A stretch of DNA of 64,000 bases from NCBI GenBank assembly GCA_964016885.1, contig OZ024763.1, positions 29,574,001 to 29,638,000 of the forward strand, given 5' to 3'. The DNA comes from Eledone cirrhosa. Taxonomy: Eukaryota. Both the position numbers and the translations under genes were made by a program. This document shows, piece by piece, positions 33,795 to 42,317 of the stretch; positions within the stretch are counted from its first letter, which is position 1; every line of letters begins with the position of its first letter. The notes below the pieces were generated by a model. That model worked only from the letters and a program-made list of their open reading frames with translations. It made no database searches and had not been told where the DNA came from.

Positions 33795-34317
33795 ACAATA
33801 ACAAGTAAATAAACACACTGGTAGTAAGTCTTTTTACATAAGCGAGACATGAAAATAAGAAGAGTTTGTCAAACAAGAATCACATACTACAATAATATAT
33901 CATCCAGCTCTCGTAACATGGCGTCTCATTATAATTAATTGCAACAATTAAGGTGTTCTAAAGAGGAGAGACTAAACTATAAACGCCTACCCTTTTGTTG
34001 TTGCTGCCATTTTTAATTTGTACTTAAATATTTAGGCTGAGGGGGTTGAGTGGTGTGGAGGTAGTGGTTGTGTGATGGGGTTTGTGGTGTAGTGGTTGGT
34101 CGTGAATGTTTTGGTTGTGGTTGTCATTGTGGGTGGTTGGCCGGGGTTGGCTGTGAGTGGGGTGGTGGTGTGGTGGTGCGGAGGGGCTAAATATAATTAT
34201 AACAATGGCCAGCTTGAGAAAACACCACGTTACAAAACACGAGTTAAGTAGGCTGTTTTTGTGTCTATCATACACAAAACTCCAGCACCAACAGTTTTCC
34301 AAGAGATATCAACATGA

Positions 34318-34525
34318 ATGGACCTGTTATTTTTATCTAAAGACATTTTTTTCCACTTCCATCTCGCCCGTCCCCTCATTCTATCTTATTTCTCATCCTT
34401 TATTCTGATGAAGGACTAGCGTCCGAAAGGTTAAGACTCTCTTCCTGCTATTTCAAGCCTTAACCTAATATATCCCTTCCATATACTGTACCGATTGTGT
34501 TGTTATTTCTGTTTACCTTTTACAT
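34318..34525 (+). mobile_element. Penelope-like pLTR remnant, second copy of the 2460-2665 family
   Basis: Colinear homology with 2460-2665, including CTGATGAaggactagcgtccGAAA at 34405. Confidence 0.75.
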
Positions 34526-34619
34526 GCATATATATATATAGAAAGATAGATAGATTTCTTTATTTATTTATATATAGATAGATATATAGATGGATGGATG
34601 GATGGATAGATAGATATAT

Positions 34620-37600
34620 TTCTTTTATTTGCCACTAGGGCATCAAAAGTGGGACAAGTACAAAGGGGGGAGTTTACACAAAAAGGCGTCCTCAATAAGG
34701 AGGAGGCAATAACAAAATATAAAAATAAAATAAGATATAACAAAAAATAAATTTTTACCAAAATCCTCAATAGAGAGGAGGCGCCTTGGGGGGTCGCACA
34801 CACCCCCGAAAAAGGTGTGCAACCCTTCTCCTCAGGAGCACAGAGAAGGGGTGCTCCCTTGGTCTTTCATCTTCCTCACCTATAGTCTGATGTAGAGTGA
34901 AGGCCCATTCACACGGGCCATTCTCGCCACTTTCACCCATCTTTCATAGAAACGGCTGGGGTGCAGCACCTCTCTCTCCATCCTGATCCTTCTTCCGAAA
35001 TGATATCGGAAGAAACGGACCAGTTGTTGGCCAGAGAGAAAGGTGCCCGACCTCAGTCCTTTCAGACGCGTCCACCATACAACCTCTTTCGCCATGGCTA
35101 TTACGCACAGAAACACCGCCTCTGCTTCATCTTTGAAGGGGGGAGGCGGCTTGATCATTACAATAGACTCGGTGGTCAACCGGATCGGTCCCACCCTTGA
35201 CAGCAGTTGTTCGACATAGCCCCACAGATCGGCTACGCCCGAGCAGTGTACTAATGCGTGTGCAACGGTTTCCTCGTCGCACACGCATCTGGGACAGATC
35301 TTTTTGGCGGGGTCCCTACCCGGGCGCCCGTGTCTGTAGAGCCTTTCTCGAACGGGTAAAGCCCCTCGGTAGCACTGCCAGGCCAGGGACTTCTGGAAGT
35401 TGTCCATAGGTCCCGGGCTGAATGTCCTACCGAACAGGCTGGCCAGTTCGTCCTCCTCCATGTCTAGGGCTTCTCCGAGGGCGTCGTCGCACCTGCTGCG
35501 CACCAGCCCTCTATAGAATGTTGCGGTGGAGTCTCCACTGATAACCGGATCCGCCTGCCAGAGGGCGGTGAGCGCCTGGGCACACTCAGTGTGCCAGGCG
35601 CCCAGTTTTCTCGGTCTTTGCTTGACCCAGGATTGCAGCTCGGTGAGTGAGACGAGTCTGGGAAAGGTTCGTCTCACAAACGAGGCCCACACCGGTTGTC
35701 CGGTGAGGAATACGTAGAGGTGCCGTAGCCTTAATGCGTGTTTACGCATCATTAGCCACGGCATCCCCAGCCCTCCTTTCGAAGGGTGTTGACAGCAGAT
35801 GGATCTCCTCACCATAGGAGCCCGCCTCTTCCAAAGGAATTGGAAGAGCGCGCGCTCCATCTTGGTGAGCGTTTCCCTTGGGCAGGGCACTACGGTCAGG
35901 CGGTAGTAGATGACGGACGCTATGTAGGTGTTCGCCACCTCCGCCCGACCTTTCAGGGATAGTTTGCAACTGGCCCACTTCTGGGTCAGTGCAAACACCC
36001 TGTTCGTAACCTCCGCCCAGTTTTTCTCCACCTGGAGGTCCGGTCCGAACCAGACCCCGAGCAACTTCACCGGGCCCTCCGTCCAGCGTCCGACGACGCC
36101 ATCGGAGGGCATCGGTCTGCCCCTCCACGTGCCGAGTTGCAAACCGATCGACTTGTCCCGGTTCAGCTTAGCCCCTGTGAACTTTTCGTACTCCTCCAGT
36201 AAGGTGCCGACCGCCTCGATTTCGGAGGCCGTCGACACCATTACTGTCACGTCATCGGCGTAGGCCGACACCGCTTTCCGCAATCCCGGTTCCAAAGGGA
36301 TGCCCTGCAACAACTCCAACTTCCGCAGTAGTGGCTCGAGAGTCAACACATACAGAAGGGAGGAGAGAGGGCACCCTTGTCGGATGGACCGCGCGATTTT
36401 GAACGGCTCCGAGAGGTAGCCGTTCACCTTGACCCTAGAGCAGATGCGGCTGCTGTGCATAGCAGTGATCCAGCCCCTGAAAACGGGTCCGAAGCCTGCC
36501 GCCGCTAGCACCGCATCCAGGTAACCATGGTCGACCCTATCGAACGCCTTAGATTGATCCAAGTTGATCAGAGCCCCACCAAAGCCGGGTTCGTTCCCAA
36601 CCCTCTCTATGATGTATCGCATGAGGTGGAGGTTGTCATGGATGGACCTGGACGGGATAGCGCATGTCTGCGCATCTCCCACCAGGTTGCCCACGACAAG
36701 CGCCAACCTCTTTGCTAGCACCTTGGCCAAAATCTGTAACTCTGTATTTAGCAGTGTTATGGGCCTGAAGTTACTTATTTCGTCCCCCTTGTTCTCGTCC
36801 TTCCTCACTAGCGTGACTACGCCCTTGGTCACAGTACAGGGAATTCTCCCGTTCTGTTGCCAGTTGCAGTAGACCGCCTCGAGGAGATCGGGGAACAAGT
36901 CCGGCATAGCTAGATATAATTCGTAAGGAAGACCATCGAGACCCGGGGATTTGCGTTTGCCGCATTGGCTCAGCACGTCCTCTATCTCAGCGGCCGAAAT
37001 CGGCTCCTCGCAGGACTTCGCCTCCCTGTCCGAGAGGCGCGGCAGGCCGTCGAGGTATGGACCGAAGTCCACGTTCCCAACCGGCTCACCGCCCCTCCCG
37101 AACAGTCGGGCAAAGTGCCTTTGAAAGGCCTCACACATCTGCTTAGGCTCAAGAATCGCCCGTCCATCCAGGTCTCGCAAAGACCGGATGGTGGATTTAG
37201 TTCCACTGTTGGCCTCTGTCACGCGGGCCCAGCTAACAGCTTTGGTCCCCTCGTTCCCTAGAGCACGTATTTTACTTCGGACAACGCAGCCTTCGTGCTT
37301 CGCGTCGAAAAACTGGCTCAAAGCCGTTCTCGACGCTAGCACTCTGGCCACGTCGCCGCTTCTAATTGCCTCTTCTACTCTATCTATTAGCTCCCTTTCC
37401 TTCCTATTCCTATCCGCAGCTAGAACCTTACTAAATTCTATCGAGACTACTCTAATCTCTCTCTTTAGAGATACCCACCACCTGCTGTTGACGATCGCTC
37501 CAGTCAACCGTTCCTTAACTAACGTACTAATCCGATTCCTGTAGGCTCTACTTGCCGGCAAGGACAAGTTGAGCTTCCAGTAACCGGGGCCCTGTCTATG

Positions 37601-38293
37601 AGTTCTGTCAAGGTTGACCATGCAGGTCACTAATTTGTGGTCTGAATAGCCAACAATGCGCATTTTTGGACAACTTAAAAAGTCCTTATCCTTAATTCTA
37701 ACTAAGAACCTATCTAGGTACGACCTAGATGATCCGCTACGATTTGCCCAAATCCAGGTTGGCGCAGTCGGAAAATCTAGTCGATATCTATCGGCCAGAT
37801 CAAATCGACCGATTATCCCTTTGAGGCTATTACACCCCTCTCTATCGGGGCAGGCCCCTACGTAGTCCCAGCGTGCATCTAGGATACCATTCCAGTCCCC
37901 CACTAATAGCAAGGAGCGGGACGTCCCTAGAAAAGTCTCCAGACGATGGAAGAAGTCCGGCCGCATTGACCCGAAAGGGCCGTAGGCGGCTACCAACCTA
38001 AACGCTCCGCCTTTACCGCTGCCAAGGTCCAGAACCACTAGTCGACCCTACGGGTCCAAATGTACCATCTGTGTTGCGAGACCCAGATGTTTTTGCAGCA
38101 GAACGACAACTCCACCCCCACCTCCGGGCTGACAGAGAGATGCGTGAATCTCAAAGTCATCAAAGGTGGGGGCCAGCTGTCGCACGTTGCTGATCCGGGC
38201 CTCGCAAATAACCATCACATCTATACGTTGTGACCTGAGGTCATTTAGAAGCATTGCTTGCTTCCAAGTTGAGCCCAGGCCACGCGCATTTAA
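34620..38293 (-). mobile_element. Tx1/L1-clade non-LTR retrotransposon, young copy 1; 5'-truncated at the start of ORF2, flanked on both sides by (GATA)n
   Basis: Carries the APE-RT-CCHC ORF2. The 3' UTR ends in AATAAAAGAAAT followed directly by (TATC)n. The 5' end (LNARGL motif) abuts (TATC)n at 38294. Confidence 0.95.
34880..38293 (-). pseudogene. LINE ORF2 (AP endonuclease + reverse transcriptase + C-terminal CCHC zinc finger) with one in-frame stop at 38048-38050
   Basis: ORF 38048..38254 and ORF 34880..38038 are in frame. APE motifs: LNARGL, ICE, AYGP, GDWN, LDR, SDH. RT motifs: KSPGLDG, FRPITLLN, DQSKAFDRV, QGCPLS, YADD, LGV. Zinc finger: CPRC-X8-H-X4-C. Confidence 0.93.
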
Positions 38294-38321
38294 GATAGAT
38301 AGATAGATAGATAGATGGATG

Positions 38322-38364
<43 letters not shown>

Positions 38365-38379
38365 GGATGGATAGATATA

Positions 38380-40992
38380 TTTCTTTTATTTGCCACTAGG
38401 GCATCAAAAGTGGGACAAATACAAAGGGGGGAGTTTACACAAAAAGGCGTCCTCAATAAGGAGGAGGCAATAACAAAATATAAAAATAAAATAAGATATA
38501 ACAAAAAATAAAATTTTTAACAAAATCCTCAATAGAGAGGAGGCGCCTTGGGGGGTCGCACACACCCCCGAAAAAAGTGTGCAACCCTTCTCCTCAGGAG
38601 CACAGAGAAGGGGTGCTCCCTTGGTCTTTCATCTTCCTCACCTATAGTCTGATGTAGAGTGAAGGCCCATTCACACGGGCCATTCTCGCCACTTTCACCC
38701 ATCTTTCATAGAAACGGCTGGGGTGCAGCACCTCTCTCTCCATCCTGATCCTTCTTCCGAAATGATATCGGAAGAAACGGACCAGTTGTTGGCCAGAGAG
38801 AAAGGTGCCCGACCTCAGTCCTTTCAGACGCGTCCACCATACAACCTCTTTCGCCATGGCTATTACGCACAGAAACACCGCCTCTGCTTCATCTTTGAAG
38901 GGGGGAGGCGGCTTGATCATTACAATAGACTCGGTGGTCAACCGGATCGGTCCCACCCTTGACAGCAGTTGTTCGACATAGCCCCACAGATCGGCTACGC
39001 CCGAGCAGTGTACTAATGCGTGTGCAACGGTTTCCTCGTCGCACACGCATCTGGGACAGATCTTTTTGGCGGGGTCCCTACCCGGGCGCCCGTGTCTGTA
39101 GAGCCTTTCTCGAACGGGTAAAGCCCCTCGGTAGCACTGCCAGGCCAGGGACTTCTGGAAGTTGTCCATAGGTCCCGGGCTGAATGTCCTACCGAACAGG
39201 CTGGCCAGTTCGTCCTCCTCCATGTCTAGGGCTTCTCCGAGGGCGTCGTCGCACCTGCTGCGTACCAGCCCTCTATAGAATGTTGCGGTGGAGTCTCCAC
39301 TGACAACCGGATCCGCCTGCCAGAGGGCGGTGAGCGCCTGGGCACACTCAGTGTGCCAGGCGCCCAGTTTTCTCGGTCTTTGCTTGACCCAGGATTGCAG
39401 CTCGGTGAGTGAGACGAGTCTGGGAAAGGTTCGTCTCACAAACGAGGCCCACACCGGTTGTCCGGTGAGGAATACGTAGAGGTGCCGTAGCCTTAATGCG
39501 TGTTTACGCATCATTAGCCACGGCATCCCCAGCCCTCCTTTCGAAGGGTGTTGACAGCAGATGGATCTCCTCACCATAGGAGCCCGCCTCTTCCAAAGGA
39601 ATTGGAAGAGCGCGCGCTCCATCTTGGTGAGGGTTTCCCTTGGGCAGGGCACTACGGTCAGGCGGTAGTAGATGACGGACGCTATGTAGGTGTTCGCCAC
39701 CTCCGCCCGACCTTTCAGGGATAGTTTGCAACTGGCCCACTTCTGGGTCAGTGCAAACACCCTGTTCGTAACCTCCGCCCAGTTTTTCTCCACCTGGAGG
39801 TCCGGTCCGAACCAGACCCCGAGCAACTTCACCGGGCCCTCCGTCCAGCGTCCGACGACGCTATCGGAGGGCATCGGTCTGCCCCTCCACGTGCCGAGTT
39901 GCAAACCGATCGACTTGTCCCGGTTCAGCTTAGCCCCTGTGAACTTTTCGTACTCCTCCAGTAAGGTGCCGACCGCCTCGATTTCGGAGGCCGTCGACAC
40001 CATTACTGTCACGTCATCGGCGTAGGCCGACACCGCTTTCCGCAATCCCGGTTCCAAAGGGATGCCCTGCAACAACTCCAACTTCCGCAGTAGTGGCTCG
40101 AGAGTCAACACATACAGAAGGGAGGAGAGAGGGCACCCTTGTCGGATGGACCGCGCGATTTTGAACGGCTCCGAGAGGTAGCCGTTCACCTTGACCCTAG
40201 AGCAGATGCGGCTGCTGTGCATAGCAGTGATCCAGCCCCTGAAAACGGGTCCGAAGCCTGCCGCCGCTAGCACCGCATCCAGGTAACCATGGTCGACCCT
40301 ATCGAACGCCTTAGATTGATCCAAGTTGATCAGAGCCCCACCAAAGCCGGGTTCGTTCCCAACCCTCTCTATGATGTATCGCATGAGGTGGAGGTTGTCA
40401 TGGATGGACCTGGACGGGATAGCGCATGTCTGCGCATCTCCCACCAGGTTGCCCACGACAAGCGCCAACCTCTTTGCTAGCACCTTGGCCAAAATCTGTA
40501 ACTCTGTATTTAGCAGTGTTATGGGCCTGAAGTTACTTATTTCGTCCCCCTTGTTCTCGTCCTTCCTCACTAGCGTGACTACGCCCTTGGTCACAGTACA
40601 GGGAATTCTCCCGTTCTGTTGCCAGTTGCAGTAGACCGCCTCGAGGAGATCGGGGAACAAGTCCGGCATAGCTAGATATAATTCGTAAGGAAGACCATCG
40701 AGACCCGGGGATTTGCGTTTGCCGCATTGGCTCAGCACGTCCTCTATCTCAGCGGCCGAAATCGGCTCCTCGCAGGACTTCGCCTCCCTGTCCGAGAGGC
40801 GCGGCAGGCCGTCGAGGTATGGACCGAAGTCCACGTTCCCAACCGGTTCCCCGCCCCTCCCGAACAGTCGGGCAAAGTGCCTTTGAAAGGCCTCACACAT
40901 CTGCTTAGGCTCAAGAATCGCCCGTCCATCCAGGTCTCGCAAAGACCGGATGGTGGATTTAGTTCCACTGTTGGCCTCTGTCACGCGGGCCC
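38380..40992 (-). mobile_element. Tx1/L1-clade LINE, young copy 2, 5'-truncated in the EN-RT linker
   Basis: Near-identical to copy 1 and bounded by (GATA)n at 38294-38376 and 40993-41282. Confidence 0.95.
38642..40984 (-). pseudogene. 5'-truncated LINE ORF2 (intact RT + CCHC, no endonuclease)
   Basis: The 780-aa open frame matches copy 1 except for a few residues (PSDG/PSDS, PVISG/PVVSG). Confidence 0.9.
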
Positions 40993-41029
40993 AGATAGAT
41001 AGGTAGATAGATAGATAGATAGATGGATG

Positions 41030-41068
<39 letters not shown>

Positions 41069-41069
41069 G

Positions 41070-41112
<43 letters not shown>

Positions 41113-41117
41113 GGATG

Positions 41118-41152
<35 letters not shown>

Positions 41153-41157
41153 GGATG

Positions 41158-41200
<43 letters not shown>

Positions 41201-41205
41201 GGATG

Positions 41206-41281
<76 letters not shown>

Positions 41282-41282
41282 T

Positions 41283-42229
41283 ATTTCTTTTATTTGCCAC
41301 TAGGGCATCAAAAGTGGGACAAGTACAAAGGGGGGAGTTTACACAAAAAGGCGTCCTCAATAAGGAGAAGGCAATAACAAAATATAAAAATAAAATAAGA
41401 TATAACAAAAAATAAAATTTTTAACAAAATCCTCAATAGAGAGGAGGCGCCTTGGGGGGTCGCACACACCCCCGAAAAAAGTGTGCAACTCTTCTCCTCA
41501 GGAGCACAGAGAAGGGGTGCTCCCTTGGTCTTTTATCTTCCTCACCTATAGTCTGATGTAGAGTGAAGGCCCATTCACACGGGCCATTCTCGCCACTTTC
41601 ACCCATCTTTCATAGAAACGGCTGGGGTGCAGCACCTCTCTCTCCATCCTGATCCTTCTTCCGAAATGATATCGGAAGAAACGGACCAGTTGTTGGCCAG
41701 AGAGAAAGGTGCCTGACCTCAGTCCTTTCAGACGCGTCCACCATACAACCTCTTTCGCCATGGCTATTACGCACAGAAACACCGCCTCTGCTTCATCTTT
41801 GAAGGGGGGAGGCGGCTTGATCATTACAATCGACTCGGTGGTCAACCGGATCGGTCCCACCCTTGACAGCAGTTGTTCGACATAGCCCCACAGATCGGCT
41901 ACGCCCGAGCAGTGTACCAATGCGTGTGCAACGGTTTCCTCGTCGCACACGCATCTGGGACAGATCTTTTTGGCGGGGTCCCTTCCCGGGCGCCCGTGTC
42001 TGTAGAGCCTTTCTCGAACGGGTAAAGCCCCTCGGTAGCACTGCCAGGCCAGGGACTTCTGGAAGTTGTCCATAGGTCCCGGGCTGAATGTCCTACCGAA
42101 CAGGCTGGCCAGTTCGTCCTCCTCCATGTCTAGGGCTTCTCCGAGGGCGTCGTCGCACCTGCTGCGTACCAGCCCTCTATAGAATGTTGCGGTGGAGTCT
42201 CCACTGATAACCGGATCCGCCTGCCAGAG

Positions 42230-42230
<1 letters not shown>
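41283..42230 (-). mobile_element. Tx1/L1-clade LINE, young copy 3 (3' ~950 bp: CCHC region + 3' UTR)
   Basis: Same C-terminus and 3' UTR as copies 1 and 2. The 5' end abuts (GATA)n at 42230. Confidence 0.95.
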
Positions 42231-42268
<38 letters not shown>

Positions 42269-42317
42269 GGATGGATGGAGTGATGGATGTGTGTGTGTTT
42301 GTCGTATATATATATAT

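Follow-up and report, generated by a model that had tools for sequence, protein, structure and literature searches.

A clade of L1-group LINEs with a strong but leaky preference for GATA microsatellites in the octopod Eledone cirrhosa

How three near-identical fragments of a LINE came to lie head to tail inside a single GATA microsatellite is the question raised by one stretch of the Eledone cirrhosa genome, 64,000 nucleotides in length and referred to here as the window. The array could represent one insertion that was later multiplied, or several insertions drawn to the same repeat, and in the latter case the means by which the repeat is selected has to be considered as well.

Three insertions in one microsatellite

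All features of the window described here lie on the minus strand. The longest fragment, copy 1 (34617..38293, 3.68 kb), corresponds to element positions 2041-5716 plus a terminal TA; it retains almost the whole of ORF2 together with the 3′ UTR, with ORF1 absent, and is 99.4% identical to a full-length copy in locus L058, positions 2282-7997 (L-numbers designate genomic loci retrieved around copies). Its open frame of 1055 aa (34880..38047) covers the C-terminal part of the APE endonuclease, the reverse transcriptase (RT) and the zinc finger, with profile scores of E 4.5e-26 for RVT_1 and scores under their own cut-offs for zf-RVT and Exo_endo_phos. The first part of the endonuclease (EN) domain (38051-38293) is cut off from this frame by an in-frame stop at 38048-38050. 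Copy 2 (38378..40997, 2.62 kb, element positions 3099-5716) and copy 3 (41282..42230, 0.95 kb, element positions 4770-5716) are 99.5% and 98.7% identical to the full-length copy, respectively.

The repeat enclosing these copies consists of a degenerate (TATC/CATC)n target on the 3′ flank of copy 1 (34545..34616), (TATC/CATC)n spacers between copies 2 and 1 (38294..38377) and between copies 3 and 2 (40998..41281, ~280 nt), and (CATC)n(TATC)9 on the 5′ flank of copy 3 (42231..42277). Within the first of these tracts, a remnant of ~15 nt (34553..34569) matches the 3′ end of a sister family in sequence and is likely an ultra-short insertion. The locus thus looks much as a preliminary description had it, with near-identical minus-strand copies (98.7-99.5%) that begin at different truncation points (2041, 3099 and 4770), 6/6 junctions inside (TATC)n with some CATC units mixed in, and no poly(A) seen at any of copies 1-3.

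Over the 947 nt shared by the three copies, pairwise differences amount to 5, 11 and 10 sites, whereas each copy is only 1 site away from some copy elsewhere in the genome (71 compared). Since the window copies are closer to copies elsewhere than to one another, they are three separate insertions and not one that was duplicated. The array is therefore composed of three real and independent copies, as had been proposed, without tandem duplication or collapse.

A second, older head-to-tail array is found at 14188..15690, where members of three families of this clade (14211-15097, 15111-15481 and 15517-15639; best matches 93%, 92% and 93% to families C, B and A) each lie between (TATC)n tracts. 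The preliminary description had missed this array. Matches to ORF2 and the 3′ UTR in the window (those starting beyond element position 1900) fall only in the two GATA arrays.

An L1-group element in a clade of several families

Full-length genomic copies are ~5.7 kb long and comprise a 5′ UTR, ORF1 (593 aa), ORF2 (1145 aa) and a 3′ UTR of ~265 nt. ORF1 has a CCHC knuckle of the form CX2CX4HX4C, for which the Pfam zf-CCHC match is weak (E 0.051), and ORF2 has the domain order APE endonuclease, RT, zinc finger (full-length profile scores: Exo_endo_phos 4.6e-08, RVT_1 1.2e-25 and zf-RVT 3.9e-05, the last under its cut-off). The best match of ORF2 among solved structures is human L1 ORF2p (E 3.8e-48, residues 8-856), with which the APE and RT catalytic motifs line up; the EN domain alone gave weak matches to solved structures. 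The element is an APE-type non-LTR retrotransposon of the L1 group.

Genome-wide, the exact 3′ 23-mer of the element occurs 1,974 times in 3.0 Gb and the exact 5′ 23-mer 375 times. For the analysis of junctions we used 93 of the first 100 listed 3′-end matches on one contig (C1), taken regardless of flank; this sample takes in a subfamily that is ~87% identical overall and has the same 3′ end. The 93 copies range from 44 to 5716 nt, with a fixed 3′ end and variable 5′ truncation, and both ORFs are open in 6/17 near-full-length copies sampled. A poly(A) tail is a defining feature of the mammal-type L1 clade proper. An A-rich tail was present in 1/93 copies (L226) and poly(A) was absent in 92/93, which by this criterion places the element outside that clade. 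A short hairpin is predicted just ahead of the 3′ end in 5/7 family ends folded, which is weak evidence.

The precise terminus consists of AATAAAAGAAA and two further bases, after which the repeat begins. These two bases are TA in the window copies, and across the sample are TA in 36, CA in 30, CT in 24, CC in 2 and TC in 1. They track haplotypes of the 3′ UTR (one haplotype has CT in 17/22 copies and TA in 0/22) and are usually unlike the bases preceding the left duplication, so that the dinucleotide belongs to the element and is heritable. With respect to the earlier suggestion that the 3′ end is followed by TATC, the repeat does follow, but only after these two element-borne bases.

What had been taken for one lineage is instead a clade of several families. 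Relatives adjoining the copies show ORF2 identity down to ~60% and have the same 3′ ending, and two of these families, B and C, account for 5,846 and 1,282 exact 3′ ends genome-wide, with two TATC units after 22/30 copies in each. Their 5′ junctions, scored with a reference library (16/30 and 10/30 ran off the loci), were in TATC in 9/14 resolved cases for family B and in 10/20 for the older family C, where the association is weaker; the remaining 5/14 and 10/20 were non-TATC and without duplication.

Among named proteins, the nearest comes from Argonauta hians (67% identity over the RT region). A quick tree built from 60 RT rows, none of them a labelled Tx1, groups the octopod families and the Argonauta protein in a single clade (SH-aLRT 99), which has unnamed proteins of ~50% identity as its sister and lies near turtle and fish sequences and away from plant L1. 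A metagenome scan of 80 loci, in which the best segments were mostly 22-40% identical, gave no TATC run after ORF2 in the six examined, a result with no bearing on close relatives.

GATA preference, orientation and target duplication

The 3′ junctions reveal a preference that is exact to the base. Genome-wide, TATCTATC lies within 4 nt after 1,288 of the 1,974 exact 3′ ends (65%), while GATAGATA, the opposite-strand form, occurs within 8 nt after 0/1,974, in agreement with the fixed orientation noted previously. In the 93-copy sample, flank positions 1-3 are T, A and T in 92, 92 and 91 copies, and position 4 is C in 75/93 and A in 16/93. The flank begins with TATCTATC in 63/93 copies, with TATATATA in 8/93 and with TCTCTCTC in 0/93; (TC)n follows a few sister-family copies (L342, L392 and L396). 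Background counts of 85 for TATCTATC and 6,832 for TATATATA among 400,000 sites rule out chance junctions in the window array and correspond to a ~600-fold per-site preference, a figure based on a small background (20 stretches of 10 kb, 200 kb in all) that is itself partly shaped by the elements, as insertions put TATC into background and flanks alike.

A similar picture emerges at the 5′ side. Two TATC units lie within 25 nt of the 5′ junction in 61/93 copies (57/93 before outer junctions were used for five internally deleted or chimeric copies), as compared to 54/15,960 background 25-mers, and in 43/71 of the copies that are plainly truncated; none of the 5′ junctions is in the opposite phase. 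At full-length 5′ ends on the reverse strand, TATCTATC is found within 14 nt in 138/162 (on the forward strand, single copies contributed more than one start, and the resulting excessive count of 429 was set aside), and 28/30 full-length 5′ ends inspected lie within TATC or TACC-type repeats. Tabulation of genomic 5′ flanks had been named in the preliminary description as the test of its proposal, and by both the 61/93 and the 138/162 counts these flanks are mostly TATC.

The specificity for GATA is nonetheless leaky, and constitutes a preference rather than exclusivity. The 32/93 5′ flanks without two TATC units count against strict targeting. Some of these belong to insertions in (TA)n, satellite or unique DNA that left a clean duplication; at others, TATC is confined to the 3′ side and duplication is absent, with unique DNA on the 5′ side at L174, L227 and L235. 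Together with the 8/93 3′ flanks that begin with TATATATA, they rule out strict exclusivity, such that the GATA-specific lineage proposed at the outset survives as a strong preference only.

A further issue is whether the TATC at the junctions is a tail carried by the element or a duplicated target, both of which had been suggested. The duplicated stretch, counted from TAT, is unresolvable at 36 pure-repeat sites, absent at 35 and non-periodic at 22 of the 93 copies; of the non-periodic duplications, 20/22 measure 11-22 nt including microhomology and the other two 6 and 45 nt. Target duplications start at TAT(C/A)TAT and are present in sister families too. No TATC has been added where the insertion site is (TA)n, satellite or unique DNA (L078, L079, L170, L199, L203-205 and L195), a TATC unit is missing at the 3′ end of 18/93 copies, and TATC runs on the 3′ side do not exceed those on the 5′ side in length (medians 8 versus 6 units, n=43, p=0.10). 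These three observations rule out an obligatory TATC tail. Given the duplications that are seen, the TATC-free copies at other sites and the lack of excess length in the 3′ runs, the TATC repeat is the target, regenerated by duplication.

It is likely because the target repeat is duplicated at each insertion that insertions pile up. A neighbor of the same clade lies within 400 nt of 43/93 copies, and in 0 of these is one in opposite orientation downstream; the 3′-end motif alone occurs in 12/1,000 background pieces, a test not identical to the 43/93 count. At L092-L094, three copies are nested at one unique site with the same duplication repeated.

Target choice and comparison with known systems

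Target-primed reverse transcription is established for non-LTR elements. Building from this mechanism, we consider it probable that a young L1/Tx1-type LINE gave rise to the array by inserting three times, independently, in one GATA microsatellite, its sites likely being found by an APE endonuclease that would nick TAT(C/A)TAT(C/A) on one fixed strand. The first nick would separate A from G on the GATA strand (GATA^GATA), and the freed 3′ end would then prime cDNA synthesis at the 3′ end of an RNA with no poly(A). A second nick ~16 nt away would leave three to five repeat units duplicated. Each insertion would leave target on both sides, permitting later insertions by any family of the clade to build head-to-tail arrays. 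The 35/93 copies at which no duplication was found count against this explanation, as do the 32/93 5′ flanks without two TATC units and the non-TATC 5′ junctions of families B and C.

Among the alternatives, the most serious attributes target choice to RNA-DNA pairing, with transcripts that would extend into the (UAUC)n flank of the donor, such that only nicks exposing a GATA 3′ end could anneal and prime, and the endonuclease itself would be loosely specific. The absence of poly(A) in 92/93 copies is in keeping with such a scheme, as are the presence of TATC after nearly every donor, the almost invariant TAT directly after the element, the reappearance in the target, at two sites (L083 and L195), of the CT that ends the element, and copies with TATC on the 3′ side only. 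Against it stand the lack of added TATC at the (TA)n, satellite and unique sites listed above and the 3′ runs, which show no excess length; these observations set a bound on any copied tail and are compatible with pairing as such. We regard this alternative as unlikely, though pairing may add to endonuclease recognition, and sequence data by themselves do not distinguish a specific nick from pairing of RNA and primer.

Two other readings appear far less credible. Random insertion, with copies surviving or accumulating in repeat-rich DNA, would suit a genome rich in microsatellites, and accumulation of this type is named for Drosophila Waldo-A and -B in PMC3812793. It is already contradicted by the base-exact phase, the single orientation (opposite in 0/1,974), the ~99% identity of the copies and the avoidance of TATATATA, which is 80-fold commoner, and we assign it a very small probability. 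We are just as skeptical of the possibility that a single insertion, duplicated in tandem or mis-assembled, underlies the window array. Three near-identical head-to-tail copies in a repeat do invite that reading, as do 200 N in the window and four contig-only runs over 34560-36500, whose short contigs pass over the repeat, nowhere span the array and carry nothing on 3′ ends or empty sites, but the copies have three distinct truncation points and resemble copies elsewhere more than one another, arrays combine different families, and the nested copies at L092-L094 repeat the same duplication at a unique site.

Returning to endonuclease-guided insertion, a broader proposal can be offered tentatively, as one that may well prove too generous. 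The families would form an undescribed, long-lived octopod LINE clade (ORF2 identity to ~60%; at least 9,100 copies when three exact 3′ ends are counted) with an endonuclease that reads GATA on one strand and with duplications that build its own niche and shape a sizeable share of the GATA microsatellites of the host. Genome-wide, AAAGAAA plus two bases directly precedes 8,164 of the 53,610 perfect (TATC)3+ runs at their start (15%), as compared to 16 matches in a reversed control. This would link the origin and expansion of one class of microsatellite to a LINE clade, in a genome with debated LINE activity, and would widen the microsatellite targets of Tx1-type elements beyond pyrimidine repeats, to include GATA and a molluscan host. 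As young copies with both ORFs open exist, control of target choice by the endonuclease or by RNA pairing is directly testable. Octopod GATA markers should be treated with caution, as they often lie at LINE junctions. No principle is overturned, as harm-limiting targeting of repeats is already established.

In terms of precedent, a GATA-targeting Tx1-like element was not found in the accessible text of the literature searched (including PMC4494074, PMC3812793, PMC4640811, PMC3747384 and PMC10294476), and a prior description of the family elsewhere, as in Repbase, Dfam, subscription papers or the supplements of PMC4494074, where further targets may be given, is plausible. For Octopus vulgaris, 80 L1-Tx1 consensus families are reported, 13 of them recently active with 421 insertions (PMC13282606). 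These may well include the present clade; the main text and single supplement of that report contain no target analysis and do not use the word 'target'. According to the text of PMC4494074, target preference in Tx1 elements is recognized where >20% of flanks lie in the repeat. The present element exceeds this value in an animal host, with 65% of 3′ flanks genome-wide and 61/93 5′ flanks.

Comparison with known systems places these features in context. Human L1 shares the APE-RT-zinc finger order of ORF2p, 5′ truncation and target duplications, whereas the present element has no poly(A), a repeat target and an ORF1 with a weak CCHC knuckle. The target of human L1 is TTTT/A, and Waldo and Mino of insects belong to the R1 clade. 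The latter two are likewise APE-type with microsatellite targets (ACAY and AC, alongside TAA for Dong; PMC4494074, PMC3812793), but the repeat is a different one and ORF2 of the present element is nearest to L1 ORF2p among solved structures. Togen is described with a (TG)n target (PMC4640811). The crocodilian Tx1 group 2 (Tx1-1_Crp, Tx1-2_AMi and others) also prefers tetranucleotide microsatellites, in that case (TTCC)n or (TTTC)n (PMC4494074), which are pure pyrimidine units in a host of another phylum, in contrast to TATC here. Kibi and Koshi, Tx1-clade elements of teleost fish that target (TC)n and (TTC)n (PMC4494074, PMC3812793), are similar in target behavior as APE-type LINEs inserted in microsatellites; they differ from the element of this octopod mollusc in their fish hosts and in their TC and TTC repeats, where the latter uses (TATC)n and leaks to (TA)n.

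Arrays in (GATA)n and adjoining repeats

In addition to the main three-copy array, the window holds a second head-to-tail array in (GATA)n, located at 14188-15690 and composed of three different families from the same LINE clade. This array is older than the main one. The 3′ flank of the main array is abutted by a 224-nt dispersed repeat (window 34317-34540), a second copy of which lies at 2459-2680 with 89% identity, and a tandem satellite with roughly 16 copies of a unit of about 123 bp (42440-44407) is found 170 nt from the array.

Features of the 3′ end

Matches of 10-15 nt to the extreme 3′ end of the clade were observed inside TATC runs at window 34553-34569 and about 48905-48916, as well as at two sampled genomic loci (L245 near 4066 and L252 near 9287). 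Such pieces were present in two of three TATC runs of at least four units in background DNA, and they are likely ultra-short insertions. With respect to RNA structure, a small GCC-N5-GGY hairpin upstream of AATAAA was predicted within the last 45 nt of the element (for example, window 34619-34665) for five of the seven family ends folded, and this modeled hairpin might serve as an RNA recognition signal.

Deleted, mixed and atypical copies

Internally deleted copies and one chimera, the 5′ part of which is only 69% identical, were found at five loci (L183, L210, L217, L218 and L237). Several further full-length copies show 87% identity overall yet have their 3′ end in common, a pattern suggesting exchange between families. 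Separately, one satellite holds three copies (L203, L204 and L205) at TATATTTC sites; two of these share both a truncation point and an 18-nt duplication, and thus were probably duplicated together with the host satellite.

Comparison with related elements

Full-length ORF2 relatives (proteins P0002-P0046 and P0177-P0189), which derive from assemblies with long contigs, form large clusters of up to 732 members and are 38-45% identical overall. One copy (L226, near 138806061 of contig C1) terminates in an A-rich tail and is sited within a (TAA)n tract; it is possibly a polyadenylated transcript mobilized by a different LINE, and (TAA)n is the reported target of Dong (PMC4494074, PMC3812793).
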